Counted from the first letter of the stretch, positions 2,305 to 64,000 are shown. The stretch: DNA of 64,000 bases from an uncultured Sphingomonadaceae bacterium (GCA_964245815.1 CAXTNX010000007.1:1787-65786), one strand, 5' to 3'. Numbers and translations are program-made. Notes: generated by a model not told the origin, from the letters alone.

Positions 2305-2364
2305 GTTCTTCTAACCTTCAAACACCGCGCGGGAGGCGGCCGATAAGGCGATGAGGGGTGACCC

Positions 2365-4556: not shown

Positions 4557-4561
4557 GACGC

Positions 4562-5501: not shown

Positions 5502-5506
5502 GACGC

Positions 5507-8332: not shown

Positions 8333-10408
<2,076 letters not shown>

Positions 10409-10453
10409 GGCGGTGGTCCTTTGAACTTGGGTTACGTTGAGGCTGCCCAAAGG

Positions 10454-10732: not shown

Positions 10733-10760
10733 TCAGCACTCCCTGGAGCTATATAAGCGA

Positions 10761-11231: not shown

Positions 11232-11272
11232 TGACTGAAACCTTTCAAACCAGCGGGATCACGGGCGGCCCT

Positions 11273-11297
11273 GGATCCCGGCCTTCGCCGGGATGAG
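11273..11297 (-). repeat. REP-like palindrome in the rpsL-rpsG spacer
   Basis: CTCATCCCGGCGAAGGCCGGGATCC with stem ATCCCGGC/GCCGGGAT; 20/25 identical to the element at 32228. Confidence 0.65.
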
Positions 11298-11311
11298 CGG
11301 GCTGCACCCGG

Positions 11312-11683
11312 TCACTTCGGACGCTTGGCGCCGTATTTGGAGCGGGACTGGCGGCGATCCTTGACCCCCTGCGTGTCGAGCACGCCGCGCAGCACGTGGT
11401 AGCGCACGCCCGGCAGATCGCGGACGCGGCCACCGCGGATCAGCACCACCGAATGCTCCTGGAGGTTGTGGCCCTCGCCCGGGATATAGCTGATGACCTC
11501 GCGCTGGTTGGTCAGGCGGACCTTGGCGACCTTGCGCAGTGCCGAGTTGGGCTTCTTCGGCGTCGTCGTGTAGACGCGCGTGCAGACGCCGCGCTTCTGC
11601 GGGTTCTGCTCCATCGCAGGGACCTTGGACTTGGCCTTCTGCGGATCGCGGCCCTTGCGGACCAGCTGGTTGATCGTCGGCAT
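11312..11683 (-). CDS. rpsL: 30S ribosomal protein S12
   Basis: Start [10 protein letters not shown] at 11683; [21 protein letters not shown]. Confidence 0.99.
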
Positions 11684-11873
11684 TGAAGCCTTCACCTTTC
11701 AGATGGTTACTTTGCCGGGCTCAGGCCGCATGCGAATGCAGACGAGGCTCATGCAAGTCCGACAAGGACCTGCCCGAGCCTCCCCAAGCGTCGGCAATGT
11801 TCAATCGGCCCGGGGGAACTCCCCTCAGGCAGGCGCGGCCTATAGCGGCGCTCTCGCAAGGGGTCAACCGACC

Positions 11874-12911: not shown

Positions 12912-12926
12912 GGCCTCGCTCCCCCC

Positions 12927-13856
12927 TCAGATCCCCGCGCCGGCACGGGGCTTGATATACAGCGCGCCGATCTCGGGCCAGTCCCGTTTGAGCTCGGCCT
13001 CGACCTCCGCGATCATCGCCTCGATCCGGCCGACCGGCACGCTGTCCACGAAATCGACGTCGGCGGCGACGAACACGCTGCGCGGACCGAGATGGACGGT
13101 CAGCACGTCGCCGACCCTGGTCACCTCGAGGCGGTTGTCGAACGCCGTGCCGATCGCGCGGACTAGATCCGGCGCGGCGCGCTCGCCGATCAGCAGGTCC
13201 TTGCTCTCCCGCGCCAGCAATGCCGCGACGACGCCCAGCACCAGTCCGATCGCGATCGAGGCGATGCCGTCCCAGCGACCGTCGCCGGTGGCGTGCGACA
13301 GCGCGATGCCGGCGCCCGCGATCAGCAGGCCCGCGACCGCCGCGGAATCCTCGAACAACACGATGAAAGCGGGCGGGTCCTTCGATCGGCGGATCGCCTG
13401 CCACCAGCCCTGATCGCCCTTGGCGCCGCCAAAGGCACGCATCGCGGTGACCCAGCTCGTTCCCTCGAGCACGATCGAGACGCCGAGCACCGCATAGGCG
13501 ACCGTCGGATCCTGCGGTGGCGCGGGCTCGGCGAGATGGATGACGCCCTCGTAGACCGATAGCCCGGCGCCGGTCGCGAAGATCAGGATCGCGACGACGA
13601 AGCTCCAGAAATAGAGTTCGCGGCCATAGCCGGCCGGGTGCGACGCGTCCGGCGGGCGCGCGGCGCGCTTCTCTCCGTAGAGCAGCAGGATCTGGTTGAG
13701 GCTGTCGACGACCGAGTGGAAGCCCTCGGTCAGCATCGCCGCCGATCCGGTGATCGCGGCGGCGACGAACTTGGCGACCGCGATACCGAGATTGGCGGCG
13801 AGCGCGACGATCAGGACGGTCCGGCTCTCGCCGCCGGGCGGTGCTTCTCCGCTCAC
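12927..13856 (-). CDS. Cation diffusion facilitator (CDF) family transporter
   Basis: EGFHSVVDSLNQ, HPAGYGRE, LFEDSAA motifs; about 6 TM segments; GTG start at 13856 inferred. Confidence 0.9.
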   Translation of the reverse strand: MSGEAPPGGESRTVLIVALAANLGIAVAKFVAAAITGSAAMLTEGFHSVVDSLNQILLLYGEKRAARPPDASHPAGYGRELYFWSFVVAILIFATGAGLSVYEGVIHLAEPAPPQDPTVAYAVLGVSIVLEGTSWVTAMRAFGGAKGDQGWWQAIRRSKDPPAFIVLFEDSAAVAGLLIAGAGIALSHATGDGRWDGIASIAIGLVLGVVAALLARESKDLLIGERAAPDLVRAIGTAFDNRLEVTRVGDVLTVHLGPRSVFVAADVDFVDSVPVGRIEAMIAEVEAELKRDWPEIGALYIKPRAGAGI

Positions 13857-46956: not shown

Positions 46957-48550
46957 CCGACCCGGGGTCCAATCCCGCTGCTCGCGCGCCGCGATCCCGG
47001 CGGCGGTATGGCAGCGACGTCGGCTTCGAGAGGATCGCCGGAGAGATCGTCACCACGGGCAGGCCGTTGAGCAGGAAGACATATTGGTCATGCCTGCCGA
47101 CCCGGACCGATGCGATACGATGGTAATCCCGGGCCAGGCGGTTCATCACCATCTCGGTGGTCGGGTGCGGCCGACTGGGCGGCGTGTCGTGATCGATGAC
47201 GACGATCGCGGGACGCGTCTCGAGGATGCGGGTCACCTCGCGCGCCTGATCCACCCCGATCGCGCCGGTCTCGTTGAGATCGCGCAGATGGCTCGCGAAC
47301 GGATAGCGTGTCCGCAGCGGCACGTTCAGCACCATGTACAGCATGGGCAGATTGTCCCACACTAGCACGCCGCGCGACGCGTAGGGACGCACGATCGCGG
47401 TCACCGCGCGGAATTGCTCGGGCGTGCCGCGCCGCCGCTGATTGAACGTCGGCAGGACCATGCAGGCGAGCAGCGCCCCCGCGAGCAGCACGGCGCTCCA
47501 CCGCCGCCGGCGCCGATCGTCGAATATGGTCGCCGCGCTGACCGAGGCGGGAACGACGATCGGCAACCCGTAATGGTCGAAATAATACCCGAACACCATG
47601 ACGGCCACGATCGCGCACACGAGCCAGCCGGTGACGAACGACGCCGAAAACGAGCGTGCCCCCCGCAGCCACCGCGCCTTCGCGCCCGCGACCGCGATGA
47701 CGACGAGCGGCGCGAGGTAGAGCGCCAGCGACGCCGCGTTGCGAAGGGCGTAGGACCTGCCGAGATCGCGGCGCTGGAAGATCGAGACGAAATTGGAGAA
47801 CCAGAACGCCTGGAAATCGCCCATCCCCAGGTAGACCGCCGCGGCGGCGAGCGTCGGCGCCAGCGCGACCGCGATCCACAACAGCATCACGGGCAGCAGC
47901 GCCGCGCGCATCCCGGCGCGGACGCCGCGCCAGAGCAGCACCACGCCGAAGAACACGCCCTCGAAGATCGCGCTGTACTTGATCTGCAAGGCGATGCCGA
48001 CGAGACCCATCGCCAGCGCGCCGGCACCGACGAACGCCCGGTCGGTGCGCGCCGCCTCGGCGCGGATGACGGCAAGCGCGGCCAGCGCCATGAACAGATT
48101 ATAGAACACCGGCGACTGGCCGCCCTGTCCGGTGAGCAGCGGGATCCAGAGCAGGTAGAGCACACCGGCCGCCACCGACGCGTACGATCGGACGAGGCTG
48201 GCCGCGATCCGTTCGACGACAAGCGCGGTGGCGACGGCGAACGCGCTCGCGACGAGCTGATACTGGATGATGCCGGCCCCCCCCAGGCAGCGGATCGCCG
48301 CATAGATCAGGAACAGGCCGATCGGCTTGCGGTCCCAGATATCGACATACGGCACCGCGCCGCGCAGCATCCGGTCGCCGACGAGCAGGTAGAACTGCTC
48401 GTCGATGTGCAGGATCGGATTGCCGAACTGCTGAAAGCGGGTGACCAGCGCGACGACGATCAGCAGAGCGGGAACCGTCCAGCGCGCGATCGGGCCGCGC
48501 TTGCGGACGCCTGCCGACGCGTCCGCGCGATCGACGGGCGCGTGCATCAT
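46937..48550 (-). CDS. GT-C-fold (ArnT/PMT-like) membrane glycosyltransferase
   Basis: HIDEQFY first-loop DE motif, PYVDIWDRKPIG, many TM segments; ATGA overlap with the upstream GT2. Confidence 0.78.
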   Translation of the reverse strand: MMHAPVDRADASAGVRKRGPIARWTVPALLIVVALVTRFQQFGNPILHIDEQFYLLVGDRMLRGAVPYVDIWDRKPIGLFLIYAAIRCLGGAGIIQYQLVASAFAVATALVVERIAASLVRSYASVAAGVLYLLWIPLLTGQGGQSPVFYNLFMALAALAVIRAEAARTDRAFVGAGALAMGLVGIALQIKYSAIFEGVFFGVVLLWRGVRAGMRAALLPVMLLWIAVALAPTLAAAAVYLGMGDFQAFWFSNFVSIFQRRDLGRSYALRNAASLALYLAPLVVIAVAGAKARWLRGARSFSASFVTGWLVCAIVAVMVFGYYFDHYGLPIVVPASVSAATIFDDRRRRRWSAVLLAGALLACMVLPTFNQRRRGTPEQFRAVTAIVRPYASRGVLVWDNLPMLYMVLNVPLRTRYPFASHLRDLNETGAIGVDQAREVTRILETRPAIVVIDHDTPPSRPHPTTEMVMNRLARDYHRIASVRVGRHDQYVFLLNGLPVVTISPAILSKPTSLPYRRRDRGARAAGLDPGSVTPRVM

Positions 48551-49368
48551 AAGCATTCGGCGCGACGCTGCCCGCCCGGCGAGGCGGGCGCGGCGTCCGC
48601 CGGCCGCGGGTCCAGCAGCCTGCGCACGCCCTGGCGCACCAGCAGGCGCACGAAGTCGAGCGCAACGCCGCTGCCGAGCTTGCTTTTGCCTGCGGTGCGA
48701 CTGCGGAAGCGATAGGGAAATTCGCGCACCGACATCGGCGCCGGCGCGGACGCGAGCAGATCGAGCAGGATCTTGAAGCCCCCGCCCGACAGCCGCGGCA
48801 CGAGCGCCACCGCCAGATCGCGGCGGATCGCGAAGAAGCCGCTCAACGGATCGCCCACCCCGTGCCCGATCACGGCATGCGCGAGCCGCGTCGCGACCCG
48901 GCTGAGCACGGCGCGATCGGCCGTCCATTCGCCGCACGAACCGCCGGCCCGGTAGCGCGAGGCGACCGCGACATCGCTCTCGCCGCGCGCGACCGCGCGG
49001 ATCATGTCGGGCACGATCGCCTCGTCGTGCTGGAGATCGCCGTCCATCACCACGACGATGTCGGCGGTCGTCGCGAGCATGCCCTCGATCACCGCGGACG
49101 CCAGGCCGCGGCGCCCGTACCGGCGGATCAGGCGCACGTCGCCGCGGTCGCGGGCAAGCCCGGCGACGACATCGGCGGAGCCATCCGTCGACCAGTCGTC
49201 GACGAACAGGATCTCGGCCTCGAAGCCGGCGAGAACCGGATCGAGCGCCGCGACCAGCCGCGCGATGTTGCCGCGCTCATTGAGGATCGGAACGACGACC
49301 GCGACCGTCGCGGCCCGCGCCCGACGGACGCGGCTTGCGATCACCGGCGGCCTCAATTCAAGCAACAT
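48547..49368 (-). CDS. GT2 polyprenol-phosphate sugar synthase (Ppm1/DPM-like)
   Basis: VVVPILNE, FVDDWSTDGS, GLASAVIEG, VMDGDLQHD, DPLSGFF, GFKILLD. Confidence 0.9.
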   Translation of the reverse strand: MLLELRPPVIASRVRRARAATVAVVVPILNERGNIARLVAALDPVLAGFEAEILFVDDWSTDGSADVVAGLARDRGDVRLIRRYGRRGLASAVIEGMLATTADIVVVMDGDLQHDEAIVPDMIRAVARGESDVAVASRYRAGGSCGEWTADRAVLSRVATRLAHAVIGHGVGDPLSGFFAIRRDLAVALVPRLSGGGFKILLDLLASAPAPMSVREFPYRFRSRTAGKSKLGSGVALDFVRLLVRQGVRRLLDPRPADAAPASPGGQRRAECL

Positions 49369-49568: not shown

Positions 49569-50357
49569 ATGCGCCTGTCGATCGACGCGACGCTCGACTA
49601 TAGCCTGCCGCAGCCCGCCGACCTGCTGCTCGCGCTCGAGGTCGCGCAGATGCACGATCAGATCCTGATCGAGGACCTGCTCGACATCTCCGGCGTCGAG
49701 CCGCTGATGCCGATCGCGGCCGAGGAAAGCCTTGGCCGCCGCACCTGGACCCGCGGATCGGGACGGGTCATCGCGCGCTACACCGCGCTGGTCGACGTCG
49801 AGCGGCCGATCGTGCCGCTCGCGGGGATGGCGGCGGACGCGCTGCGCCGGCTGCCCGCGCTCGTCGTTCCGTATCTCTTTCCCAGCCGCTATTGCGAGGC
49901 GGACCGCTTTGATGCGCTGGTCAGACGCGAGTTCGGCGCGCTGGAGGGGGGCACCAAGGTCCACGCGATGGCGGAATGGATCCGCGCGCATGTCGACTAT
50001 CTGGCCGGCACGAGCGATGCGACCACCACCGCGACCGACGTGCTGATCAGCCGGCAGGGCGTCTGTCGCGACTTCGCGCACCTGCTGATTGCGATGACGC
50101 GCGCGTCCGGCATCCCGGCGCGCATGGTCGCGGCCTATGCCTGGCAACTGGATCCGCAGGATTTCCACGCGGTCGCCGAGGTCTGGCTCGACGGTGGCTG
50201 GCATATCGTCGATGCGACCGGGCTGGCGCCGTGCGACGGCATCGTCCGCATCGGCGTCGGCCGCGATGCCACCGACGTCAGCTTCCTGACCGTGTTCGGG
50301 CAGGCCGAGCTGATCTTCCAGCAGGTCGCGGTGCGGCGGGTCGGCGACAGCGACTGA
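49569..50357 (+). CDS. Stand-alone transglutaminase-like protein
   Basis: Catalytic triad GVCRDFAH / DFHAVAE / VDAT; YLFPSRYC. Confidence 0.9.
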   Translation: MRLSIDATLDYSLPQPADLLLALEVAQMHDQILIEDLLDISGVEPLMPIAAEESLGRRTWTRGSGRVIARYTALVDVERPIVPLAGMAADALRRLPALVVPYLFPSRYCEADRFDALVRREFGALEGGTKVHAMAEWIRAHVDYLAGTSDATTTATDVLISRQGVCRDFAHLLIAMTRASGIPARMVAAYAWQLDPQDFHAVAEVWLDGGWHIVDATGLAPCDGIVRIGVGRDATDVSFLTVFGQAELIFQQVAVRRVGDSD

Positions 50358-50580
50358 TCGCCCCAGCGACTGCGGATCGCCACCATCGGTGCCGTCTCCT
50401 GTCGGTTCGCGCCGGAAGGCGGGGCGGATCGGAAGGCAGCACCCTGAACGCATCCTCGCCACGCATGGTCGTTGCAGACGATCGGGGACGTCCGCCGCGG
50501 GCACCCGATCGTCGGCCTTTACCGCACCCGTCCCGCCGGCCTATTCGTCGCGCGCTGCGGCGAGGGAGAGAGACGGGCGG

Positions 50581-51129
50581 ATGTCGGGCGGTGGTCTCGC
50601 CGAAGCGTTCATGGCGAACCGGGCTGCCCTGCTCCGCTATCTGCGCGGACGCGGCGCCGGCGACGAGGCCGAGGATCTTCTACAGGACCTGTGGCTCAAG
50701 CTGGACGGTCATACCGAGATCGGCTTCGTCGATGCGCGTGCCTATCTCTATCGGATGGCCCACAATCTGATGCTCGACCGGCAGCGCGGCAGTATCAGGC
50801 GGCGGCGGCGCGAGGACGCCTATTACAGCGATGCCGGCGGCGGCGGCGCGGGCGACGCGCCCGGCGCGGAACGCACGCTGCTCGGCCGCGAGACGCTGCG
50901 CCGGGTCGAGGCGGTGCTGTCCGCGCTCGGCCCGCGGACCGATCTGATCTTCCGGCGCTACCGGATCGAGGGCATCTCCCAGCGCGACATCGCGGGCGAA
51001 CTCGGCATCACCCTGAGCGCGGTCGAGAAGCAGCTTCAGAAGGCCTATCGCGCGGTGGCAAGCGTTCAGGAGATGCTGCTCGGCGAGGACGCCGCCTGCG
51101 CACCGGAGGCCAGCGATGAGCCCCGCTGA
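50581..51129 (+). CDS. ECF RNA polymerase sigma factor (FecI-like)
   Basis: AEDLLQDLWLK, YLYRMAHNL..D, IAGELGITLSAVEKQL. Confidence 0.9.
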   Translation: MSGGGLAEAFMANRAALLRYLRGRGAGDEAEDLLQDLWLKLDGHTEIGFVDARAYLYRMAHNLMLDRQRGSIRRRRREDAYYSDAGGGGAGDAPGAERTLLGRETLRRVEAVLSALGPRTDLIFRRYRIEGISQRDIAGELGITLSAVEKQLQKAYRAVASVQEMLLGEDAACAPEASDEPR

Positions 51130-52102
51130 CGCGCGCCGCCGCGACGAGGCGCTGGACTGGGTCAGACGCATCCAGGACCCGCATTTCACGGACTGGGAGG
51201 CGCACGCCGACTGGCTCGACGTCGATCCGCGCAATGCCCATGCGTTCGACGAGATGGCGGATCTCATCGCCACCGCCGTCGCCGGTCTCGGGCCCGCCGG
51301 ATCGGCCGCGACGGCGGTCGGACCGGCCAGCGACGATCCGGCGGGCGGTCCGGCGATCGATCCGGCGATCTCCGCGAGGCGACGCTGGAATCGTACCGGC
51401 ATCGGTCTCGCCGTCGCCGCCGGTCTGGCGGCGCTGGTCGCGGTGCCCGCGGTGATGACCCATGGCGGGGGGAGCATCGCCTACACCGTCCGGACGGGCG
51501 CCGGCGAACGACGCACGGTGGCGCTCCTCGACGGCACGCGGATCGCGCTCAACGGCGACAGCGCGATCGAACTCGATCACCGCGATCCGCGCACCGCCTC
51601 GCTGGAGCGCGGCGAGGCGTATTTCGCGGTCGTCCACGATGCCGCGCATCCCTTCGTGGTCCATGCCGGCGATGCGACGTTCCAGGATCTCGGAACCGCG
51701 TTCGATATCGTCCGCGAGTCCGGCGGGGCGCGGGCGTCGGTGCACGAGGGCGCGATCCTCTACGATCCGGGCGGCGCGGCGGTGCGGATCGGCCGCGGCG
51801 ACGCGATCGAGATCGCGCAGCGCACCGCGATCGTGCGACATGTCGATGCCGCCGCGGTCGGCGCGTGGCGATCGGGCCGGCTGACCTATGCGGATGCCCC
51901 GATGACCGAGGTCGCCGCCGATCTGGCGCGTTCGATCGGCGAGCCGGTGCATGTCGATCGCAATGCCGCATCGGCGCGTTTCACCGGCGTGATCATGATC
52001 GATCCCGATCGGACGCGGATGTTTCGGCGCGTGGCGGCGATCACCGGTGCCCGGATCCATCGCGACGGCGCGGGCTGGCGGATGGCGTTGCCCGCCCGGT
52101 GA
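51116..52102 (+). CDS. FecR-family anti-sigma/signal transducer
   Basis: EALDWV N-terminus, one TM segment, TGAGERRTVALLDGTRIALN, GEAYFAV.HD. Confidence 0.92.
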   Translation: MSPADARRRDEALDWVRRIQDPHFTDWEAHADWLDVDPRNAHAFDEMADLIATAVAGLGPAGSAATAVGPASDDPAGGPAIDPAISARRRWNRTGIGLAVAAGLAALVAVPAVMTHGGGSIAYTVRTGAGERRTVALLDGTRIALNGDSAIELDHRDPRTASLERGEAYFAVVHDAAHPFVVHAGDATFQDLGTAFDIVRESGGARASVHEGAILYDPGGAAVRIGRGDAIEIAQRTAIVRHVDAAAVGAWRSGRLTYADAPMTEVAADLARSIGEPVHVDRNAASARFTGVIMIDPDRTRMFRRVAAITGARIHRDGAGWRMALPAR

Positions 52103-54420
52103 GGGCCGCGACGGCGATCCTCCTCGTGCTCGCGTCGCTGTCGCCGGCCGGGCTGGCCGCGGCGCCGGTGCGATCGCTCGCGATTCCCGCGGGGCGGCTC
52201 GGCGCCGCGATCGTCGCGATCGGGACACAGGCCGGCGTGACGATCGGCATCGCCGACGCCGCCCTGACCGAGATCGCGGTCCCGGGCGTGCACGGCCGGA
52301 TGAGCGCGGCGGCGGCATTGCGCCGGCTGCTCGCGCACAGCGGCGCGACGATGGTGGAGGTGGATGCCGCGACGTTCCGCATCGTCGCACGCTGCCATGC
52401 GGCACCGGATCGGCCGGCGACGCCGCGCGTCGCGGAGACCTCGGTCGCGATCGCGACCGCGATCGTCGTCACCGCCAGCAAGCGCGCGGTGAACGTGGCA
52501 TCCTACCCCGGCACCGTCTCGGTGGTCGAGACCGATGCGATCCGGCCTGGTCGGCTGGGCCGGGGGAGCGAGGCGCTGCTCGACCTTCAACCGGCGCTCT
52601 CGGCCACGCATCTCGGTCCGGGGCGCAACAAGCTGTTCATCCGCGGCATCGCCGATTCGAGCTTCAACGGCCCCACCGCGGCGACCGTCGGCCAGTATCT
52701 CGGCGAGACCCGGCTCAACTACAACGCACCCGACCCCGATCTCGCGCTGTACGACATCGCCTCCGTCGAGATCCTCGAAGGGCCGCAGGGCACCCTTTAC
52801 GGCGCCGGCTCGCTCGGCGGGATCATCCGCCTCGTCCCCGTCCCGCCCGATCTCGCGGTCGCGAGCCTGGCGCTCTCGACCGGCGTATCGACCACGGCGC
52901 ACGGCGCGACCGGCGGAGACGGCGCGTTGATCGCCAACCTGCCGGTGGTCCGCGACGGAATCGCGTTGCGCGGCGTGGTCTATGGCGGCATCGACGGCGG
53001 CTATATCGACGATCCGTCCCGCAACGCCAGGGACATCAACCGCACGACGACCCGCGGCGGCCGCGCGACGCTCAGGATCGCGCCCGCGCCCGACTGGACG
53101 ATCGACCTCAGCGGGGTGATACAGGACATCAACAGCCGCGACGGACAATACGCCCAGCGCGGGTTGCCGCCGCTCGAGCGCGACAGCGTGCTCGCGCAGC
53201 CGTTCGACAACGATTACGCGCTCGCGAGCCTGGTCGTCCGTCACCGCGCGGGCACGATCGATCTGGTTTCCGCCACCTCGGCCGTGTTCCACGATGTCGC
53301 CTCGGTCTACGACGCCAGCACGACACGGGCGACACCACGGCGCTACACCGAGGATGACGGCATCACGCTGCTCACCAACGAAACGCGGGCGTCGCGACAC
53401 GATGCGCGCGGCAACGGCTGGGTCGTCGGCATCGAACTGCTCCACAGCACCGACCGCCTGACCCGCACGCTCGGACCGCCCGCTGCGCCGAGCCGGATCG
53501 CGGGCACGCGCAATACGGTCGAGGAGGCATCCGTCTATGGCGAGGGGACGCGCGCGCTGACCCGCACGCTGTCGGTGACGGCGGGCGGGCGCATCGCCTA
53601 TGACCGCACCGTCGGCAGCGCGCTCGATGCCGGCGGCGATACGGCGCCGCGCCGTCACGATGTCTCGGCGCTGCCTTCGGTCGGGCTCCTGTGGAAGCCG
53701 GACGGCATGATCTCGCTCTATGCGCGCTACCAGCGCGGCTATCGGTCGGGTGGTCTGTCGGTCGCCGCCGACGGCGTTCGGCGGTTCGCGCCCGACAGCG
53801 TCGCGACCAGCGAGATCGGCGTCCGCCGCGGCATGGCTGGGGACCGGCTGAGGTTCGCGGCCGCACTGTCCTTCACGCATTGGGAGCGCATCCAGGCCGA
53901 TCTCGTCGCGACCGACGGGCTGCCCTATACCGACAATATCGGCACGGGCCGGGTGCTCGGCTTCGAGCTGCAATCGGCGTGGCGCGTGGTCGACGCGCTG
54001 ATCCTCGACGGCGCGCTGTTCCTCAACCAGAGCCGGCTGTCGCACCCCGCGGCCGGCTTCGAGGGCGAGCGCGACGCGACGCTGCCCAACATCGCCGACG
54101 TCGTCGCGCGGGTCGGCGCGCGCTTTACGGCGCGGGCGTTCGGTCGCCCGATCGCGCTCAGCGCATCGCTGGATTATGTCGGGCGTTCGCGGCTCGGCGT
54201 CGGCACGGCGCTCGACCTGCGGCAGGGACGTTCTATCGATTCTGCCGCCGGCCTCAGCATCCCCGCGGGGCGCACGACGATCTCGATCGATATCACCAAT
54301 CTGGCCGACGCGCGCGGCAACGTCTTCGCGCTCGGCAATCCGTTCGGCGTCGTGGCGGGGGATCAGATGACGCCGCTGCGCCCACGCACCATCCGCCTCG
54401 GCGCGACCACGCGGTTTTGA
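52099..54420 (+). CDS. TonB-dependent transducer with N-terminal signalling (STN) domain
   Basis: Signal peptide; IPAGRL...VPGVHGRMS STN; IVVTASKR TonB box; EILEGPQGTLYGAGSLGG plug; terminal Phe. Confidence 0.92.
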   Translation: MRAATAILLVLASLSPAGLAAAPVRSLAIPAGRLGAAIVAIGTQAGVTIGIADAALTEIAVPGVHGRMSAAAALRRLLAHSGATMVEVDAATFRIVARCHAAPDRPATPRVAETSVAIATAIVVTASKRAVNVASYPGTVSVVETDAIRPGRLGRGSEALLDLQPALSATHLGPGRNKLFIRGIADSSFNGPTAATVGQYLGETRLNYNAPDPDLALYDIASVEILEGPQGTLYGAGSLGGIIRLVPVPPDLAVASLALSTGVSTTAHGATGGDGALIANLPVVRDGIALRGVVYGGIDGGYIDDPSRNARDINRTTTRGGRATLRIAPAPDWTIDLSGVIQDINSRDGQYAQRGLPPLERDSVLAQPFDNDYALASLVVRHRAGTIDLVSATSAVFHDVASVYDASTTRATPRRYTEDDGITLLTNETRASRHDARGNGWVVGIELLHSTDRLTRTLGPPAAPSRIAGTRNTVEEASVYGEGTRALTRTLSVTAGGRIAYDRTVGSALDAGGDTAPRRHDVSALPSVGLLWKPDGMISLYARYQRGYRSGGLSVAADGVRRFAPDSVATSEIGVRRGMAGDRLRFAAALSFTHWERIQADLVATDGLPYTDNIGTGRVLGFELQSAWRVVDALILDGALFLNQSRLSHPAAGFEGERDATLPNIADVVARVGARFTARAFGRPIALSASLDYVGRSRLGVGTALDLRQGRSIDSAAGLSIPAGRTTISIDITNLADARGNVFALGNPFGVVAGDQMTPLRPRTIRLGATTRF

Positions 54421-54472
54421 ACTGCGGGTTCGGCCTTGCGGTGTCGTAGGGGATCATGAGCGTTCGGAAGGA

Positions 54473-55018
54473 ATGGCGATGCGGGTGCGGGATTTGGGTG
54501 CGGCCGGCGCGCTGCTGGTCGCCGGCGTCGCGCCGGCGCAGGCGAGCGACCATGGCTATGCGGTGGCGAGCTCGATCGGTCGCGACATCCTCGTCGCCGC
54601 CGCGCTTGGGGTGCCCGCCGTGCAGGGCGACTGGCGCGGCGATCTCGAGGCGGCGGGCAGCATCGCCGCCGCCGGTGGCGTCTCCTACGGTCTCAAGGAA
54701 CTGATCCACGAACGCCGCCCCGATGGCAGCGACGACAAGAGCTTCCCCTCGGGTCACGCCGCAGTCTCGTTCGCCGCCGCGGCAAGCCTGGAGAACCGCT
54801 ATGGCTGGGAGGTCGGCATACCGGCATTCGCGCTCGCCTCGTTCGTCAGCGCGGCACGCGTCGAGGCGCGCAAGCATCATTGGTACGATGTCGTCGCCGG
54901 TGCCGCGATCGGCAGCGCGAGCGGCTTCCTCATCACCTCCAGGCGCAACGACGGCGTGCGGCTGGTGCCATGGGCGGATGGCGGCGGCGGCGGCCTCTCG
55001 CTGGCGACGCGCTTCTGA
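54473..55018 (+). CDS. PAP2-family phosphatase, probably exported
   Basis: KELIHERRP (C1), SFPSGH (C2), [13 protein letters not shown] (C3). Confidence 0.9.
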
Positions 55019-55069
55019 CGCCGCCAGGGCGACCACGCCGCCTGTGGCACCGGCCGCGGCGCGCGTCGC

Positions 55070-55350
55070 GCGTCGCGATCGACTGCGTGACCCTTGGCGA
55101 TCCCGGACAGGCCGATCCGCGCCGCGCCTCGGACGCGCCCGGTGTCGCCGTCCGGTTCGATGTCGCGCCAGGTGCCTCCGGCGTGCGCTGCGGCCACCGG
55201 ATCGAACGCGCCGTCGCTCGCCTCCGCCCAGTGCAGCGCGCGCGTCAGGCAGTCGCGTGGGCAGGCCTCGATGCACCTCGCGACCTGCCCGATCCGGTTG
55301 AGCGCGCTGGTCCCGTCCTGCGCGCCCATCAGCCGGTGGATCGCCGAGCC
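55070..55350 (-). pseudogene. apbE: ApbE (FAD:protein FMN transferase) remnant
   Basis: Minus-strand AIHRLM...SALNRI...[15 protein letters not shown]...WRDIE...[12 protein letters not shown]; N-terminus and C-terminal half missing. Confidence 0.65.
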
Positions 55351-55389
55351 GGCTTGCGCTCGCCGCCGGTTTGGCCTCTGACTGTACGC

Positions 55390-58300
55390 ATGCTCAAGGC
55401 CGGCCTGCACCACCTCACCGCCTATCGTTACGACCGCCCGATCCGGCTGGGTCCGCAGGTCATCCGCCTGCGACCCGCACCGCACAGCCGCACCAAGGTG
55501 CCGAACTACGCGCTGACCATCGAGCCGCCGAACCATTTCCTCAACTGGCAGCAGGATCCGCACGGCAACTGGCTGGCGCGGATCGTGTTTCCGGATCCGG
55601 TCGATCGTTTCTCGATCGACGTCGACCTGCTCGCCGATCTCGACATCGTCAATCCGTTCGACTTCTTCGTCGAGCCCTATGCCGAGACCTATCCCTTCAC
55701 CTACGATGCCGATCTCGCGACCGATCTCGCCGCCTATCGGGACACCGAGCCGCAGGGGCCGCTGTTCGAGGCGCTGGTCGCGCGGCACGCCGCCACGCGC
55801 GAGCGGACGATCGACGTCCTCGTCGAGATCAATTCCGGGATCCAACGCCAGGTCGGCTATGTCATCCGCATGGAATCGGGTGTGCAGACGCCCGAGGAGA
55901 CGCTCGCGATCGGCAGCGGCTCGTGCCGCGACTCGGCCTGGCTGCTCGTCCAGCTGCTGCGCCGGCTGGGCTTCGCCGCGCGCTTCGTGTCGGGTTATTC
56001 GATCCAGCTCGTCGCCGATGTCGAGCCTATCGAAGGGCCGAAGGGCGTCACCCAGGACGTCGTCGACCTCCACGCCTGGGCGGAGGCCTATGTGCCCGGC
56101 GCCGGCTGGATCGCGCTCGACGCGACATCGGGCATGTTTGCGGGCGAGGGCCATATCCCGCTGTGCGCGACCCCGCACTATCGCTCCGCCGCGCCGATCA
56201 GCGGCATGGCCGAACCCGCCGAGGTGTCGTTCCACTTCGAGATGAGCGTCACCCGCATCGCCGAGGCGGTGCGGATCACCAGGCCGTTCACCGACGAGCG
56301 CTGGGCGGCGGTGCAGGCGCTGGGCGATCGCGTCGACGCCGATCTGGTCGCGCAGGACGTGCGGCTGACGACCGGCGGCGAACCGACGTTCGTGGCGGCG
56401 GACGGCGGTCAGGCGGACGAGTGGAACGGCGGCGCGGTCGGCCCGGAGAAGCAGGGCTATGCCGACAAGCTGGTGCGCTCGCTGCGCGAGACCTTCGCGC
56501 CCGGCGGCATGCTTCATCACGGCCAGGGCAAATGGTATCCGGGGGAGAGCCTGCCGCGCTGGGCCTATGCGATCTACTGGCGCGGCGATGGCGTGCCGGT
56601 GTGGCGCGACGCATCGCTGATCGCGCGGGAGGATGGCGGGGACAAGCCGCCCGCCACCGCCGCGATGGCCGAGGCGCTGCTCCACGGCATCGCCACGGGG
56701 CTGCACCTCGCGCCGGCCAACGTCTCGCCGGTGTTCGAGGACGAGGAGGCATGGACGGGCAAGGCCGCCGATCTCCCGGTCAACACGACCCCCGACGATC
56801 CCAGGATCGACGATCCCGAGGCGCGCGCGCGCATGGTCCGCGCCTTTGCGCGCGGTCTCGCCAATCCGGTCGGCTATGTGTTGCCCGTGCAGCGCTGGCA
56901 GGCGGCTCAGCAGGGCTCGTGGATGAGCGAAAGCTGGCGGCTGCGGCGTGGCAAGCTGTACGCGGTGCCCGGCGACAGCGCGCTCGGCTACCGCCTGCCG
57001 TTGGGCTCGCTGCCCTATGTGCCGCCCGCCGCCTTTCCCTATATCCACCCGCGCGACACCAGCGAGCCGCGCGGCCCCCTTCCCGGTTTCGCGCGCCAGG
57101 CCGGCATCGAGATCGCCGCGCCCGACCCGCGCGAGCGTCAGGTCGCCAGCCGGGGCGAGACGCCGCCGACCGCCGCGCAGGAGCGTGTCGAGCAGGAGCT
57201 GATCGAGGGCGCGGTCCGGACGGCGATCACCGTCGAGCCCAAGGCGCATTATCTCTCGGTGTTCCTGCCGCCGGTGCGCGCGCTGGAGGATTATCTCGAG
57301 CTCGTCGCCGGTGTCGAGGCGGCGGCGGCGGCGCTTGCCGTCGAGGTGCGGATCGAAGGCTATGCGCCGCCACCCGATCCGCGGCTCCAGGTGCTCAAGG
57401 TGACCCCCGATCCCGGCGTCATCGAGGTCAACGTCCAGCCGGTATCGAGCTGGAGCGAGACCGTCGAGCTGACCGAGACGCTCTACCACACCGCGCGCCG
57501 GCACGGCATGACCGCGGACAAGTTCATGATCGACGGACGCGCGGTCGGAACCGGCGGCGGCAATCATATCGTGCTCGGCGGCGCGGCGCTCGACGACAGC
57601 CCGTTCATCCGGCGCCCCGATCTGCTCAAGTCGTTCGTGCTCTACTGGCAGCGTCATCCGGCGCTCAGCTATCTGTTCTCGGGCATGTTCATCGGCCCGA
57701 CCAGCCAGGCGCCGCGGATCGACGAGGCGCGCCACGACGGGCTCTACGAGCTCGAGATCGCGCTCGCGCAGGTGCCCGCACCTTGCGAGGGCGAGATGCC
57801 GCCGCCGTGGCTGGTCGACCGGCTGTTCCGCAACCTGCTCGTCGACGTGACCGGCAACACGCACCGCACCGAGATCTGCATCGACAAGCTGTTCTCGCCC
57901 GATGGCCCGACCGGGCGCCTCGGCCTGGTCGAGTTCCGCGCCTTCGAGATGCCGCCCGACGCGCGGATGAGCCTCGCGCAGCAATTGCTGCTTCGCGCGC
58001 TCACCGCCTGGTTCTGGCGCGAGCCCCGGCAGGGCGGGCTGGTGCGCTGGGGGACGCAGCTCCACGATCGCTTCATGCTGCCGGAGTTCGTCTGGGCGGA
58101 CTTCCTCGACGTGCTGTCCGATCTGCGCGGCGCCGGCTACGACTTCGATCCCGCCTGGTTCGAGGCGCAGCGCCAGTTCCGCTTCCCGGTGCACGGCGCG
58201 GTGACGGCGGGCGGCGTCATGCTGGAGATCGCGCATGCGTTGGAGCCGTGGAACGTGCTCGGCGAGACCGGCGCGATCGGCGGGACGGTGCGCTATGTCG

Positions 58301-58731
58301 ACAGCTCGACCGAGCGATTGCAGGTCCGCGCCTCGGGACTGGTCGCCGGGCGGCACGTCGTCGCCTGCAACGGCCGGCGCGTGCCGATGACGCCCACGGG
58401 CAGGCCCGGCGAAGGCGTCGGCGGGGTGCGCTACAAGGCCTGGGCGCCGGCGGACTGCCTGCATCCGCGCCTGGCGGTGAACGCGCCGCTGACCTTCGAC
58501 GTGCTCGATGCGTGGAGCGGCCGCTCGCTCGGCGGCTGCGTCTATCATGTCGCGCATCCGGGCGGCCGCAGCTATGACGACGTGCCGGTCAACGCCTATG
58601 AGGCCGAGGCGCGGCGCAAGGCGCGCTTCCAGGACCACGGCCATACCCCCGGGCAGGTCGCGATGCCGCCTGAGGAGCCTGCCGGCGAGTTCGCGATGAC
58701 GCTCGATCTGCGTCGCCCGCCGCCGCTGTGA
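55390..58731 (+). CDS. Transglutaminase-like domain fused to DUF2126 putative amidoligase
   Basis: Triad GSCRDSAW / DLHAWAE / LDATSG; C-terminal [31 protein letters not shown]; about 1113 aa. Confidence 0.9.
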
Positions 58732-61211
58732 CGGCGGCCGCGCAGATGACCGCGTCCGCCGAGCAGGACGCGTTGGCCCGCTATGCCGGCGAGGCGGGCG
58801 CTGGCGACCTGATGCTGGGGGCCGACGCCGAGATGGCGCCGCGCTGGGCAGCGATGCTGGCCGGGCTTTCGGCACGCGAGCGCGGTGGCTTTGCCGGCGT
58901 CCACGCGCGCGCGGCGCGGCAGGTGCTCGATCTCGGCATGGCGTTCCGCCTGGCGGGCGAGCAGGACGAGCGCGCCTGGCCGCTGAGCCCGGTGCCGCTG
59001 CTGATCCCGGCGCGCGAATGGGACACGATCGAGCACGGCCTCGCGCAGCGCGCCGATCTGCTGGAAACCGTGCTGGCGGATGTCCATGGCGCCGGCCGGC
59101 TGGTCGCCGACGGCCATCTTCCCGCCGCGGTGGTGACCGGCAGCCCCGGCTATTGGCGGCAGATGCGCGGCGTCGCCCCGCCACGCGGCCATCGCCTGCA
59201 ATTCTACGCCGCCGATCTCGGCCGCGGTCCCAATGGCGAGTGGCGCGTCCTGTCGGATCATGCCCGCGCCCCGGTCGGCGCGGGCTATGCCCTGGAGAAC
59301 CGGCTGGCGATGGCGCGCGCCACCGACGACCTGCTCGGCCACATGAACGTGCGCCGGCTCGCGCCGTTCTTCGCGAGCTTCCGCCAGGGGCTCGCGGCAT
59401 GCTGCGAGCGCGTCGACCCGCGCATCGCGCTGCTCACGCCCGGCCGCTTCAACCCGAGCTATCCGGAACAGGCGCATCTCGCGCGCTATCTCGGCCTGCT
59501 GCTGGTCGAGGGCGAGGACCTGACGGTGAAGGACGACAGGCTCTATGTCCGCACCATCGAAGGGCTCAAGCGGATCGATGCGCTGTGGCGGCGGATCGAC
59601 ACGCGCTTCCTCGATCCGCTGGCGTTCGACGCGCGCTCGCGGATCGGCGTGCCCGATCTGTTCGAGGCGCTCGGCGCGGGCGGTCTCGCGGTCGCCAACT
59701 GGCCGGGCGCGGGCGTCGTCGAGAGCGCCGCCTTCGCCGCCTTCCTGCCGCGGCTGGCGCGCGCGCTGACCGGCGAGAACCTCGTGCTCCCCAACATCGC
59801 GACGTGGTGGTGCGGGCAGGACGCCGAACACCGGCTCGTCCGCGAACGGCTCGACGAACTGGCGGTCGGGCCGGCTTTCGGGCGCGCGCTGCCCGGGCTG
59901 CCCGGCGGCCGCGCGCGCATCGGCGCGCGGCTCGATCCGGCGGACCGTGCGGCGCTCGCCGCGGACATGGCGCACCGGCCGATGGATTATGTCGGGCAGG
60001 AGCTCGTCCGCCTGTCGACCACGCCGGTACTGATCGACGGTGTCCTCGCGGCACGTCCCTTCACGCTGCGCGCCTTCCTCGCGCGCGACGGCGACGGTGC
60101 GTGGCGCGCGATGCCCGGCGGCTTCGCGCGGCTGGCGGCGCATGGCGACATCCGCGCGGTGCTGATGGGCGAAGGCGACCTCTCGGCCGATGTCTGCATC
60201 GTCTCGGACCGGCCCGAGGCGGCGATCTCGCTGCTCGACACCAGTCTCTCGCCCGCGATCCGCCGCGTCGCCGGCACGCTGCCGAGCAAGGCGGCGGACA
60301 ATTTCTTCTGGCTGTCGCGCTATCTCGAGCGCGGCGAGATGGTGCTGCGGATGGTGCGCGCGCTGCTCGGCGGCACGATCGAGGCGGACGGCGCCACCGC
60401 GCTCAGCGGCGCGACGCTCGGCAAGGTCGCCGGGCTGCTCGTCGAATGGGGTGCCGCGCCACGTGCCGCCCTGGCCGGCGGCGTCACCGCGCTGTGCGCG
60501 CGCGCGATCGGCGATACCGCGCTCGGCGCGAGCGCGCATGCGCTGTTCGGCGCCGCCGCCGGGATCGCGCAGGGCCTGCGCGAGCGGCTCTCGATCGATG
60601 TCTGGCGGCTGGTGTCGCGCCCGCTCGGCTCGGTCGCCGAGCATCCCGCGGAAGCGCTGATCGAGCATGCCGCGCGGCTGATCGATCGCTGCGCCGCGAT
60701 GTCCGGCCTTGCCGCCGAGAACATGGTGCGCGGCCCCGCCTGGCAGTTCCAGGATATCGGCCGCCGCATCGAACGCGGCGTCCATCTCTGCCGGCTGCTC
60801 CGCACCTTCGCGACCGACGCCGCGACCAGCGACGATCTCGGCCTGCTGCTCGACCTGTGCGATTGCCAGATCAGCTACCGGATGCGCTATCTCTCGGGTC
60901 TCGCGCTGCTGCCGGTGCGCGACATGCTGGTGCTCGAACCCGGCAATCCGCGCGCGCTCGCCTTCCAGGTCGACTGCATCGTCCGCCGGCTCGGCGCGCT
61001 GCCCACCTTGCGCGACGACGGCATGCCCGAGCCACCGGTCCGTATCGCCACAGCGATCGCCGCGGTGCTCGCCGCCAGGACCGCCGAGACGCTCGACGAC
61101 GACGATCTCGCGTGGATCGAGGAGCAGTTGCTCGATCTGTCGGACGCGATCGGCGCGCGCTTCTTCCTGCAAGGGCGCGAGCGCGCGGCCAACATGACGC
61201 GGCTGGCGTGA
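58728..61211 (+). CDS. Circularly permuted type-2 ATP-grasp fused to alpha-E (DUF403) domain
   Basis: [57 protein letters not shown]; alpha-E SRYLER and GRRIER. Confidence 0.9.
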
Positions 61212-62089
61212 GATACCGCGTCGATCACGTCACCCGGGTCCATTATCGGTCGCCGGTACGTCTGGCGCGGTTCAACCTGCGCCTCGCGCCCGTCGCGTGG
61301 CCGGGGCAGACGACGAGCGGCTTCTCGCTCGCGATCGAGCCCCGGCCATCGCTGCGCGAGGACCGCGCGGGCGCCTATCCGTTCCATCTCACCCGCGTCG
61401 AGATCGACCAGCCGATCGAGACGCTCGAGATCCGCGCGCGGTTCGAGGCGAGTGCGGAGGATGCGATGCTCGATCTCGACATCCCCGACCCCTCGATCGG
61501 CGCGGTCGCGGGTTCGGCGCTGGCGCAGCGATCGCTCGATCCCGATTCGCCCACGCTGTTCCTCTACCCGTCGCCGCTGCTGCCGGGGGAAGGCGCGATC
61601 GCCGCGTGGGCGCGACCGCGGCTGCCTGCCGACGCGCCCGTGCTGGCCGCCGGGCTCGCCCTGACGCGCGCGATCCAGCGCCAGTTCCGCTACGATTCGG
61701 ATGCCACCGAGGCCGACACGCCGGTCGCCGACGCGTTCGCGATCCGGCGCGGCGTCTGCCAGGATTTCGCGCACATCCTGATCGAGGCGTTCCGCGCGGT
61801 CGGGCTGCCGGCGGCCTATGTCAGCGGCTATCTGCGCACCGTCCCGCCACCCGGCCAGGCGCGGCTGGTCGGGGTCGATGCGATGCACGCCTGGGTCGCG
61901 CTGTGGTGCGGGGTGCAGCGCGGCTGGGTCGGGCTCGATCCGACCAATGGCTGCATCGCCGGATCGGGCCACCTCGTCACCGCGATCGGGCGCGATTATG
62001 CCGATGTCTCGCCGATCGACGGCATCTTCGTCGGCGGCGGATCGCAGCGCATCGAAACGCGCGTCGATGTGGTGCCGCTGGAGGGATGA
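61208..62089 (+). CDS. Transglutaminase family protein with bacterial N-terminal domain
   Basis: GTG start overlapping the upstream stop; [13 protein letters not shown]-domain; triad GVCQDFAH / MHAWV / LDPTNG; GRDYADVSP. Confidence 0.9.
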   Translation: MRYRVDHVTRVHYRSPVRLARFNLRLAPVAWPGQTTSGFSLAIEPRPSLREDRAGAYPFHLTRVEIDQPIETLEIRARFEASAEDAMLDLDIPDPSIGAVAGSALAQRSLDPDSPTLFLYPSPLLPGEGAIAAWARPRLPADAPVLAAGLALTRAIQRQFRYDSDATEADTPVADAFAIRRGVCQDFAHILIEAFRAVGLPAAYVSGYLRTVPPPGQARLVGVDAMHAWVALWCGVQRGWVGLDPTNGCIAGSGHLVTAIGRDYADVSPIDGIFVGGGSQRIETRVDVVPLEG

Positions 62090-62101
62090 GCCCCTACCCC
62101 T

Positions 62102-63244
62102 TCAGCTCCCAAGTTCCACGCCATGTCCGAAGGTCGCGATCATCGCCTTGAGCCCGGCCCCCTCCCGGTCGCCCGGCGACCAGCGGCCGGCCGCGAAGGC
62201 GAGCAGGCGATTGACGAAATCGAGCTTGAGCACGATCTGCGGCGTGATCCGGAACGGATAGAGATCGGGCTGTCCCATGCTGCGATTGACCGCGTTGATC
62301 GCATAGGCGAGCGGGATCCACGCATCGATCAGCGTCGCGGTGTCGGCGCCGAACGGATCGAAGCCGACTCCTGACCGCCCGTCGCCGAGCGCCGCGGGCG
62401 GCATGCCGACCGTCATGTCGAAGCTGCCGATCGTCGCCAGCGTATCGACGATGTGGAGATAGTGCGCGAAGGTCTCGGCGAAATCTTCCCATGGGTGCGT
62501 CGTCGCATAGACCGAGACATGATCCGTCTCCCATCCGTCGCGTCGCACGCCGGCGTAATGGGCCTGGAGGGCGGCGGCATAGTTCGCCCGCTCGTCTCCG
62601 AACAACGCGCGGAACGGCCCGAGATCGGGGGTGAACTCGATCAGCCGATGCCAGTAGTAGTGGCCGATCTCGTGACGGAAATGACCCACCAGCGTCCGGT
62701 AGGGCTCGCCGAATGCGCGGCGGAGGCGTTCGCGCGCGACGTCGTCCGCCTCGATCAGGTTGATCGTGACGATGCCGGCCTGATGCCCGGTGAGCAGGTT
62801 CGGCGCGTAGCCCTGCTCGGCAGCGGGATCGTAGAGGAAGTCGAACGTGAGGCCGAACGTACCCGAGCCGAGCACGGCGGGCGGCGTACCCAGCCGGATC
62901 AGCGTGTGGATCGTGCGCTTCTTCGCGGCCTCGATCTTCGTCCAGCGCTCGAGCGCCCCGGCGATCGCCAGGTCGGGGATGACGCGGTTGAACTTGCAGC
63001 CCTCGCACAGCGTCCGCTCCGGTGGGCCGGACAGCAACCAGTTGCACGCCCCGAGCCGTGCATTGGCACACGGCCTCAATCCCGCCCCGTCCCGCCCCTC
63101 GTGCCCGCGCCAGCAACCGTCGTCGTCGAGGACATGGAACTGCCCCGCCTGCGGCTCGAAACCGACGCCATGACCGCAGCTCGGGCAGCTCCGCCCATCG
63201 AAACCGAGCAGCTGATCGCATCCGGGGCAGGAGAAGGCGCGCAT
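62102..63244 (-). CDS. Zinc-ribbon plus putative zinc metallopeptidase (DUF2248-type)
   Basis: CPGC/CPSC and C..CNW/CEGC Cys clusters; FRHEIGHYYW HExxH; HPWEDFAETFAHYLH. Confidence 0.88.
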   Translation of the reverse strand: MRAFSCPGCDQLLGFDGRSCPSCGHGVGFEPQAGQFHVLDDDGCWRGHEGRDGAGLRPCANARLGACNWLLSGPPERTLCEGCKFNRVIPDLAIAGALERWTKIEAAKKRTIHTLIRLGTPPAVLGSGTFGLTFDFLYDPAAEQGYAPNLLTGHQAGIVTINLIEADDVARERLRRAFGEPYRTLVGHFRHEIGHYYWHRLIEFTPDLGPFRALFGDERANYAAALQAHYAGVRRDGWETDHVSVYATTHPWEDFAETFAHYLHIVDTLATIGSFDMTVGMPPAALGDGRSGVGFDPFGADTATLIDAWIPLAYAINAVNRSMGQPDLYPFRITPQIVLKLDFVNRLLAFAAGRWSPGDREGAGLKAMIATFGHGVELGS

Positions 63245-63288
63245 GACGCCACCGACGAGCCGCCGCGCCGGTGGTTCCGCCGCGACCG

Positions 63289-63672
63289 TCAGGCGATAGC
63301 CATGATCCGATGGAGCGTCCGCCCGATCGCGCCGCGATCATAGGGTTTGGCGAAGAAATGCGCGCCCTCCGGCATGTCCGCGACAGATGGAGCGCAATCG
63401 CCAGAGACGATGATGAACTTCAGCGGCGGCCAGCGATCATGCGCATAGGCGACGAGTTGCAGGCCATCCATCGATCCGGCCATCTGAATGTCGGTAAAGA
63501 CGACCCCGATGTCCGGGTGCGCCTCCAGAAGCGCGATCGCCTCGTCCGCGCTCTCCGCCTCCAACACCTCGAAGCCAAGATCCTCGACCATTGCCGTCGC
63601 GGACATGCGGATCATCGGGTCGTCCTCGACGACGAGGACCTTGCGCGACACAGTCTCGATCGCCGATCGCAT
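63289..63672 (-). CDS. Single-domain response regulator receiver
   Basis: VLVVEDD, FTDIQMAGSMDG (phospho-Asp), IVSG, AKPY; start uncertain (63672 or 63696). Confidence 0.88.
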   Translation of the reverse strand: MRSAIETVSRKVLVVEDDPMIRMSATAMVEDLGFEVLEAESADEAIALLEAHPDIGVVFTDIQMAGSMDGLQLVAYAHDRWPPLKFIIVSGDCAPSVADMPEGAHFFAKPYDRGAIGRTLHRIMAIA

Positions 63673-63794
63673 TCCGTTCACCCATCTCGCCGGCACTCCG
63701 GGCCATAATATTAATCAGGATCAACATAACGAGCGGGTGGGCAGACTTGATCCGTACGACTTCGTGAAAATATCGAGCGCGCAAAGCAGGATAG

Positions 63795-63822
63795 CGAGCC
63801 GCCGGCATGCGCCGGCGGCTCG
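63795..63822. terminator. GC-rich hairpin after the fasciclin gene
   Basis: Perfect 12-bp stem CGAGCCGCCGGC-ATGC-GCCGGCGGCTCG; weak U-tract. Confidence 0.5.
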
Positions 63823-63828
63823 TTCGGT

Positions 63829-64000
63829 TCACGGCATCAGCACGGTGTCGACGACATGGATCACGCCGTTCGACTGCATGACGTCCTTGATCGTCACCGT
63901 CGAGGTGCCGCCCTTGGCGTCGGTCAGCACCAGCTTGCCCATCTTCATCGCCGCCGTCAGCGGCTCGCCCTGCACGGTGGTGAGCGTGGCGGTGCCGTGA
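63829..64000 (-). CDS. Fasciclin (FAS1) domain protein, 3' end (truncated by window)
   Basis: Manual translation LTTVQGEPL...DVMQSNGVIHVVDTVLMP*, the FAS1 H2 motif. Confidence 0.9.
   Translation of the reverse strand, partial: HGTATLTTVQGEPLTAAMKMGKLVLTDAKGGTSTVTIKDVMQSNGVIHVVDTVLMP

Follow-up and report, generated by a model that had tools for sequence, protein, structure and literature searches.

An intact DUF2126-type amide-ligase cassette and its zinc-ribbon peptidase neighbour in an uncultured Sphingomonadaceae bacterium

We analysed a 64,000-nucleotide stretch of DNA from an uncultured Sphingomonadaceae bacterium (GCA_964245815.1 CAXTNX010000007.1:1787-65786; the whole stretch is called the window here), in which four adjoining genes lie between positions 55390 and 63244. 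The first three, P0001, P0002 and P0003, are a DUF2126-type cassette of the known kind, made up of a transglutaminase (TGase)-DUF2126 protein, a fused circularly permuted ATP-grasp (cpATP-grasp)-Alpha-E protein and a second TGase. The locus carries an intact version of an enzyme set that is widespread and that comparative genomics had predicted, and it adds no new component. The fourth gene, P0004, encodes a zinc-ribbon peptidase of the Peptidase_Mx family (Mx). Mx is a genuine and recurrent partner of the cassette, and the link is real but loose. It is best described as an accessory peptidase of the DUF2126 module, not as a substitute for a missing Anbu, the proteasome-like peptidase of a related operon type. 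The DUF2126 cassette is among the most widespread bacterial enzyme sets without a known substrate; of the proteobacterial genomes sampled, 11-24% have it. The value of the locus is that of a well-defined experimental target, not of a discovery; the useful leads are the pairing of Mx with DUF2126 and the coexistence of two cassette types in one genome. It is with the DUF2126 module, and not with Anbu, that the zinc-ribbon zincin goes, which makes P0001 and P0004 a concrete pair.

The window lies on contig C7 of the genome (G000), a 2.8 Mb assembly estimated to be 100% complete; it has a G+C content of 71%, and its proteins have their top matches in Sphingomonas. P0001 (55390-58731, + strand, 1113 amino acids) combines an N-terminal TGase-like thiol enzyme with DUF2126, predicted to be a circularly permuted carboxylate-amine ligase resembling glutamine synthetase (GS). 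P0002 (58728-61211, + strand, 827 amino acids) joins a cpATP-grasp domain (residues ~90-470) to the helical Alpha-E domain (518-813), and P0003 (61208-62089, + strand, 293 amino acids) is a stand-alone TGase-like thiol enzyme. P0004 (62102-63244, - strand, 380 amino acids) has an N-terminal double zinc ribbon followed by a Peptidase_Mx domain, a predicted zincin. A third-position G+C of 0.85-0.96 in the called frames backs all four genes. P0001 ends in a stop codon (58729-58731) that shares letters with the GTG start codon of P0002 (58728-58730) in the sequence GTGA, a second GTGA overlap (61208-61211) joins the stop of P0002 to the start of P0003, and P0003 and P0004 are convergent, with stops 12 bp apart (62090-62101). 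The N-termini of P0001-P0004 show no evident signal peptides, which suggests a cytoplasmic location for the cassette proteins.

The domain content is clear in Pfam. P0001 matches Bact_transglu_N (3e-24), Transglut_core (4e-15) and DUF2126 over its full length (E = 0, 1277 bits, model positions 1-826 of 826), P0002 matches CP_ATPgrasp_2 (6e-132) and Alpha-E (6e-59), P0003 matches Bact_transglu_N and Transglut_core, and P0004 matches Zn_ribbon_DZR_6 (6e-20) and Peptidase_Mx (3e-90). None of the four has a model in NCBIfam. We aligned orthologues from at least 10 genera at 29-85% identity. The catalytic triad of P0001 (C179/H228/D244) and ~250 further columns are invariant among 16 orthologues, including many Glu, Arg, His and Asn positions of DUF2126, and the triad of P0003 (C184/H227/D244) is invariant among 12. 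In P0002 both ER motifs of Alpha-E (RYLER and GRRIER) are invariant, as is ALENR. Among 28 Mx sequences (42-74% identity) the motif H191-E192-x-x-H195, E253 and E257 are invariant, and so are all eight zinc-ribbon cysteines (C6, C9, C20, C23, C59, C67, C80 and C83). The cassette enzymes look active. An earlier note, made from the sequence alone, had described the domains of all four proteins, two intact TGase Cys-His-Asp triads, three genes coupled by stop/start overlaps, a HExxH zinc-ribbon peptidase converging on them across 12 bp, and two unrelated ligase folds beside thiol and zinc hydrolase domains; this description is borne out, with the ligase fold of DUF2126 a predicted one. The same note had named degenerate ligase active sites as something to look for, and the alignments instead have invariant catalytic and ligase-domain residues.

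The four genes are also conserved as a unit. A blastn comparison of window positions 51001-64000 with part of a Sphingomonas genome (G013:C1:1650000-1668000) gave one 7.9-kb match (window 55354-63220, 80% nucleotide identity), which covers the four genes almost exactly, while the flanks fail to align. The four genes are therefore conserved jointly as one block, and their flanks are not.

Solved structures relate to some of these domains. The ATP-grasp part of P0002 matches PDB entry 3n6x (E = 1.5e-57) and P0003 matches 3isr (E = 6e-10), a TGase-like structure that is also matched by the N-terminal part of the AlphaFold model of P0001 (E = 4e-13; a mediocre model, with a predicted local distance difference test, pLDDT, of 69). 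The P0001 model has ~180 extra beta-rich residues at its C-terminus. A GS-like fold of the DUF2126 part is plausible; its Foldseek matches to glutamine synthetases are weak (probability 0.77-0.89, E 0.06-0.13), a PDB sequence search found no solved relative of DUF2126, and a profile search with the DUF2126 alignment found no ligase.

No solved structure related to Mx was found by sequence. Its AlphaFold model, a confident one (pLDDT 86, predicted template-modelling score 0.88), has as best PDB match the peptidase domain of collagenase H (weak, E = 7e-3), with further weak matches to lethal-factor-like and MtfA-like entries (E 0.05-0.2), all with template-modelling (TM) scores <= 0.29. Mx shares with these zincins of the Peptidase_MA clan the HExxH motif, the downstream Glu and a helical catalytic core; it is structurally distant from them (E >= 7e-3, TM <= 0.29), and the double zinc ribbon is unique to the Mx family. 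The family, formerly DUF2248, was predicted in 2013 to be a zincin by FFAS (PMC3650047). The putative zincin fold and the HExxH+E motif point to peptide-bond hydrolysis.

We surveyed two evenly drawn samples, one of 301 Alphaproteobacteria (class sample) and one of 201 Pseudomonadota (phylum sample). The DUF2126 cassette is present in 32 genomes of the class sample (~11%) and 48 of the phylum sample (24%), and Alpha-E in 96 of the 301 Alphaproteobacteria. The earlier note had taken the locus for a special 'writer+eraser' variant. It is not one: 26 of the 43 fused cpATP-grasp-Alpha-E loci in the class sample adjoin DUF2126, and the window has the same three genes, order, fusions, translational coupling and catalytic residues as the DUF2126-type cassette of 2009 (Iyer 2009 type), with no essential difference. 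Its adjacent, convergent zinc-ribbon peptidase is a minority arrangement. The combination of two ligases was reportedly already described by Iyer, Abhiman, Burroughs and Aravind in 2009. The cassette also occurs in mycobacteria, and we take the Rv2566-Rv2569c cluster of M. tuberculosis to be of the same type. Literature searches on DUF2126, Peptidase_Mx, their Pfam accessions and Rv2566-Rv2569c returned nothing functional. Two Anbu structure papers cite Iyer et al. 2009 for the prediction of tagging or peptide synthesis, and both state that the role of the Anbu operon is untested (PMC6376114, PMC5666114). A 2024 paper describes the DUF2126 protein of M. leprae as lacking any experimental study (PMC11597610).

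The partnership of Mx with the cassette is seen in gene neighbourhoods. We searched the flanks of 80 loci of Mx relatives with the window proteins and clustered the flanking open reading frames (ORFs) without bias. TG-DUF2126 (the P0001 type) directly adjoins Mx in 29 of the 80 loci, in at least 10 genera and five orientations, and it ranks first among the conserved neighbours of Mx in the flanking-ORF clusters, lying a median of 177 bp away. The two genes are divergent and head-to-head at 19 of the 29 loci, the commonest arrangement among close relatives, and convergent at four, as in the window; at three Mx follows the TGase co-directionally, at two it precedes TG-DUF2126 co-directionally, and one locus is truncated by a contig end. 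Methylobacterium or Methylorubrum account for 14 of the 29. Mx lies inside co-directional operons in L027, L038, L043 and G223. In three loci (L002, L023 and L059) Mx is accompanied by TG-DUF2126 while cpATP-grasp is absent. The other conserved neighbours of Mx, among them ABC ATPase, AlgH-like, redoxin, DsbD_N, APH, RNase H, GGDEF-EAL and histidine kinase genes, were rejected as functional partners, being lineage-specific synteny.

Co-occurrence across genomes gives the same pairing. Mx was found in 18 of the 301 Alphaproteobacteria, and all 18 carry Alpha-E (p = 3.6e-10). Within the Alpha-E genomes of this class sample, DUF2126 is present in 13 of 18 with Mx vs 19 of 78 without (odds ratio 8, p = 2e-4); in the phylum sample it is present in 14 of 20 genomes with Mx vs 34 of 181 without (odds ratio 10, p = 5e-6). 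The nesting of Mx in Alpha-E genomes and these two odds ratios uphold the claim of the earlier note that the zinc peptidase belongs to the system.

Several loci show how the components are combined elsewhere. In L083 (G340:C1:1621000-1640500) Mx is followed on one strand by a 224-amino acid protein without a Pfam match, a fused cpATP-grasp-Alpha-E gene, a TGase gene, genes for two ~1080-amino acid RTX-repeat (HemolysinCabind) proteins, and a split cpATP-grasp and Alpha-E pair; a DUF2126 gene lies 100 kb from this supercluster. In L088 (G406:C1:3282500-3298000), from a non-alphaproteobacterial member of the Pseudomonadota, the genes after Mx are a divergent split cpATP-grasp/Alpha-E pair and next a full set of TG-DUF2126, cpATP-grasp-Alpha-E and TGase genes, and a second Mx copy lies 50 kb off. 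Both cassette types are combined around Mx in G406 and G340. L082 (G223:C9:588000-606000) has at 9013-13639 (- strand) split cpATP-grasp, Alpha-E, TGase and Mx genes in that order, with Mx in the usual slot of Anbu; elsewhere G223 has one DUF2126 cassette and two Anbu-like genes. An Mx homologue of 51% identity is found on plasmid unnamed1 (692 kb) of Novosphingobium sp. BL-8A (L012), with no cassette gene within 10 kb. The cassette components form a mix-and-match network.

We think it probable that the four genes are a DUF2126-type amide-ligase cassette working by the mechanism that follows, the identification being much surer than the mechanism. Each ligase is paired with a papain-fold TGase, DUF2126 by gene fusion and cpATP-grasp/Alpha-E by translational coupling. 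The ligases would turn a carboxylate into an acyl-phosphate and link it to an amine, so that a peptide or protein substrate encoded outside the cassette acquires an amide or isopeptide bond. Working through a thioester, the TGase-like domains may prepare the substrate (Gln to Glu deamidation, or transfer) or remove the adduct. The zincin would hydrolyse a peptide bond, either in the product or in the modified substrate, and thereby allow the modification to be processed or recycled; it may work specifically with the DUF2126 module. For the homologous cpATP-grasp of the Yersinia Anbu operon, hydrolysis of ATP to orthophosphate has been shown (PMC6376114). Because both recruited hydrolases, the zinc-ribbon zincin and Anbu, are of peptidase type, we prefer a peptide or protein substrate to a small amide, and give it not quite an even chance.

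More tentatively, the TGase-DUF2126 protein and the zincin could be a self-contained module that writes, prepares and erases a novel cytoplasmic post-translational modification, as the three loci that hold Mx and TG-DUF2126 without cpATP-grasp would allow. The TGase would deamidate or acyl-transfer a Gln or Glu side chain, the GS-like ligase would use ATP to couple an amine there, and Mx, docked by its zinc ribbons, would cleave the modified protein or strip the adduct. The cpATP-grasp/Alpha-E/TGase part may extend or diversify the mark, in parallel to and independently of the Anbu system.

In pupylation the GS-like ligase PafA couples a glutamyl carboxylate to an amine, and its companion Dop converts Gln to Glu and erases the mark. 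By analogy, the window cassette would resemble this system in having a GS-like ligase with a preparing and erasing companion enzyme. Compared from the genes alone, it differs in being without a Pup-like tag gene and a proteasome ATPase; its companion is a papain-fold TGase domain where Dop is a ligase homologue, and DUF2126 is permuted and far larger.

Several findings weigh against the mechanism and against a close tie of Mx to DUF2126. The co-occurrence tests treat genomes without phylogenetic correction. Counted from the listed coordinates of both genes, Mx adjoins DUF2126 in one of the 13 genomes of the class sample that have both (only G000) and in four of the 14 in the phylum sample, and it is because adjacency is confined to such a minority in evenly drawn samples that we call the link loose. 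DUF2126 is absent from five or six of the Mx genomes in each sample. The GS-like fold of DUF2126 has as its basis Pfam, the 2009 description and the weak Foldseek matches. A comparison of related loci found no conserved small tag-protein gene linked to the ligases at the cassette. The earlier note had held that substrate and product are uncharacterised, and this still stands: the literature to late 2026 yielded no substrate, product or activity of any DUF2126, Alpha-E or Peptidase_Mx protein.

The most serious alternative, which we regard as possible but on balance unlikely, is a small-molecule pathway, in which a nitrogen-rich amide of low molecular weight is built and broken down by the ligases and thiol amidases, with no tagging of any protein. 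Candidates would be a gamma-glutamyl-amine, a glutathionylspermidine-like compound or a polyamine-peptide compound, with the ligase and thiol pairs acting like the bifunctional glutathionylspermidine synthetase/amidase (GspSA). GspSA is built of a synthetase and a CHAP-amidase, a design that the ligase/thiol pairing here mirrors, a papain-fold thiol domain being paired with each ligase. Among solved structures the closest to the cpATP-grasp is 3n6x, which its depositors labelled 'putative glutathionylspermidine synthase', and the absence of a conserved tag or precursor gene from the cassette would also fit such a pathway. Nitrogen limitation is reported as an inducer of related Anbu operons (PMC6376114, PMC5666114), another point that would suit a nitrogen-rich product, but no promoter of the sigma-54 type lies upstream of the cassette. 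A motif search found no sigma-54-like site in 55019-55389 or upstream of Mx, and over the whole window it gave 14 matches vs 14.8 expected; nitrogen control of the cassette is unsupported here. Other features also weigh against a small-molecule product. The partner found again and again is a zincin carrying two zinc ribbons, and peptides or proteins are the usual targets of such domains; in the paralogous cassette type it is a proteasome-like peptidase that has been recruited; and the extra beta-rich C-terminal residues of P0001 would suit the binding of a macromolecule.

Anbu has a bearing on both the partner and the substrate. The earlier note had seen no Anbu in view, which tblastn confirms for the window and which fails for the genome: the Alpha-E survey led to contig C60 (L084), where an Anbu operon of canonical form is present in full. 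The operon consists of genes for cpATP-grasp (2144-3676), Alpha-E (3813-4751, the second Alpha-E gene of the genome), TGase (4751-5560) and Anbu (5579-6331, 250 amino acids), the last matching solved Anbu structures at E = 5.7e-64. The same protein scores only 17 bits against PF00227 (Pfam Proteasome), and a whole-genome PF00227 search that had reported no Anbu was rejected as a false negative. PF00227 misses Anbu in six-frame searches, and statements of 'no Anbu' that rest on it are therefore unsafe. We discarded the Anbu tallies taken from PF00227 copy number and repeated the 301-genome survey with the C60 Anbu protein as query.

Anbu was then found in 52 of the 301 Alphaproteobacteria, adjacent to 40 of 93 split-type Alpha-E loci. 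PF00227 itself has a match in 249 of the 301, mostly HslV-like proteins and some Anbu, which the model detects weakly. In G000 no HslV was found by tblastn with an HslV from the same family or by PF00227, and Anbu appears to be the sole proteasome-like protease of this genome. Both cassette types are complete in this one small genome, without HslV detected, which gives a clean genetic background. The canonical Anbu operon (cpATP-grasp, Alpha-E, TGase-like and Anbu genes in this order) is credited to Valas and Bourne 2008, with structures in PMC5666114 and PMC6376114. The window cassette resembles it in having paralogous components and an accessory peptidase. It differs in the fusion of ATP-grasp and Alpha-E, in an additional ligase, DUF2126, that is joined to a further TGase, and in having a zincin where the Anbu operon has an Ntn-hydrolase. 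The canonical gene order is found at C60 and not in the window, where the fusion is present and TGase-DUF2126 comes first. The separate C60 operon would be a paralogue of the window system and would not supply something that the window cassette lacks.

A homologue of arginyl/leucyl-tRNA-protein transferase (ATE_N and ATE_C domains), an enzyme of the N-degron pathway, is encoded at L084:1186-2043 (+ strand), ~100 bp upstream of the C60 cpATP-grasp gene on the same strand. A link of N-end-rule tagging to the Anbu system through this homologue is possible.

It is unlikely that Mx is the functional equal of Anbu and replaces it in cassettes that lack Anbu, as the earlier note had proposed in saying that the zinc peptidase stands in for Anbu. 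The two do keep apart locally: in the class sample Mx is within 10 kb of Anbu in 0 of 18 cases, and among the 80 Mx loci the 29 that adjoin TG-DUF2126 include none with Anbu. Split operons are the main setting of Anbu (the 40 of 93 loci above), and the DUF2126 or fused type is that of Mx; in G223 Mx has the last slot, the usual position of Anbu. At the level of genomes there is no anticorrelation. Among Alpha-E genomes Anbu is present in nine of 18 with Mx vs 42 of 78 without (odds ratio 0.86, p = 0.8), and among DUF2126 genomes in six of 13 vs 11 of 19. G000 has Mx and a complete Anbu operon together, Anbu adjoins DUF2126 at two loci (G317 and G320), and most DUF2126 cassettes adjoin neither peptidase. 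The two also differ in fold and catalytic chemistry. The stand-in proposal is thus only loosely supported, with Mx and Anbu independent of each other and Mx tracking DUF2126.

Least likely of all, we think, is that P0004 is an unrelated neighbour that serves another process and converges on the operon by chance: its opposite strand (hence no co-transcription), the distance or different contigs that separate Mx from DUF2126 in most co-occurring genomes of the even samples, the 51 of 80 Mx loci without DUF2126 within 10 kb and the unrelated housekeeping genes around Mx in Rhizobium-type loci would fit this, but the nesting of Mx in Alpha-E genomes (18 of 18), the odds ratios of 8-10 in two samples, adjacency in five orientations and many genera, the co-directional operons that include Mx, and a block conserved in G013 that ends exactly at the Mx gene all argue against it.

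Upstream of the cassette the window encodes an ECF sigma factor (50389-51129), a FecR-like anti-sigma protein (51116-52102), a TonB-dependent receptor (51865-54420) and, directly upstream, a PAP2 phosphatase (54473-55018). Together they have the look of a common surface-signalling uptake unit, unrelated to the cassette, and these genes are not kept beside the cassette in G013. The gap upstream of P0001 is 370 bp long, and its sole ORF (95 amino acids, 55094-55381) was rejected as a tag or precursor, being of low complexity and without a homologue in related loci. A further Transglut_core protein (3e-24, without Bact_transglu_N) is encoded 5 kb upstream at 49569-50357 (+ strand), adjoined by a gene for a family-2 glycosyltransferase (48547-49368, - strand), and contigs C28 and C18 of the genome hold further TGase-like paralogues.

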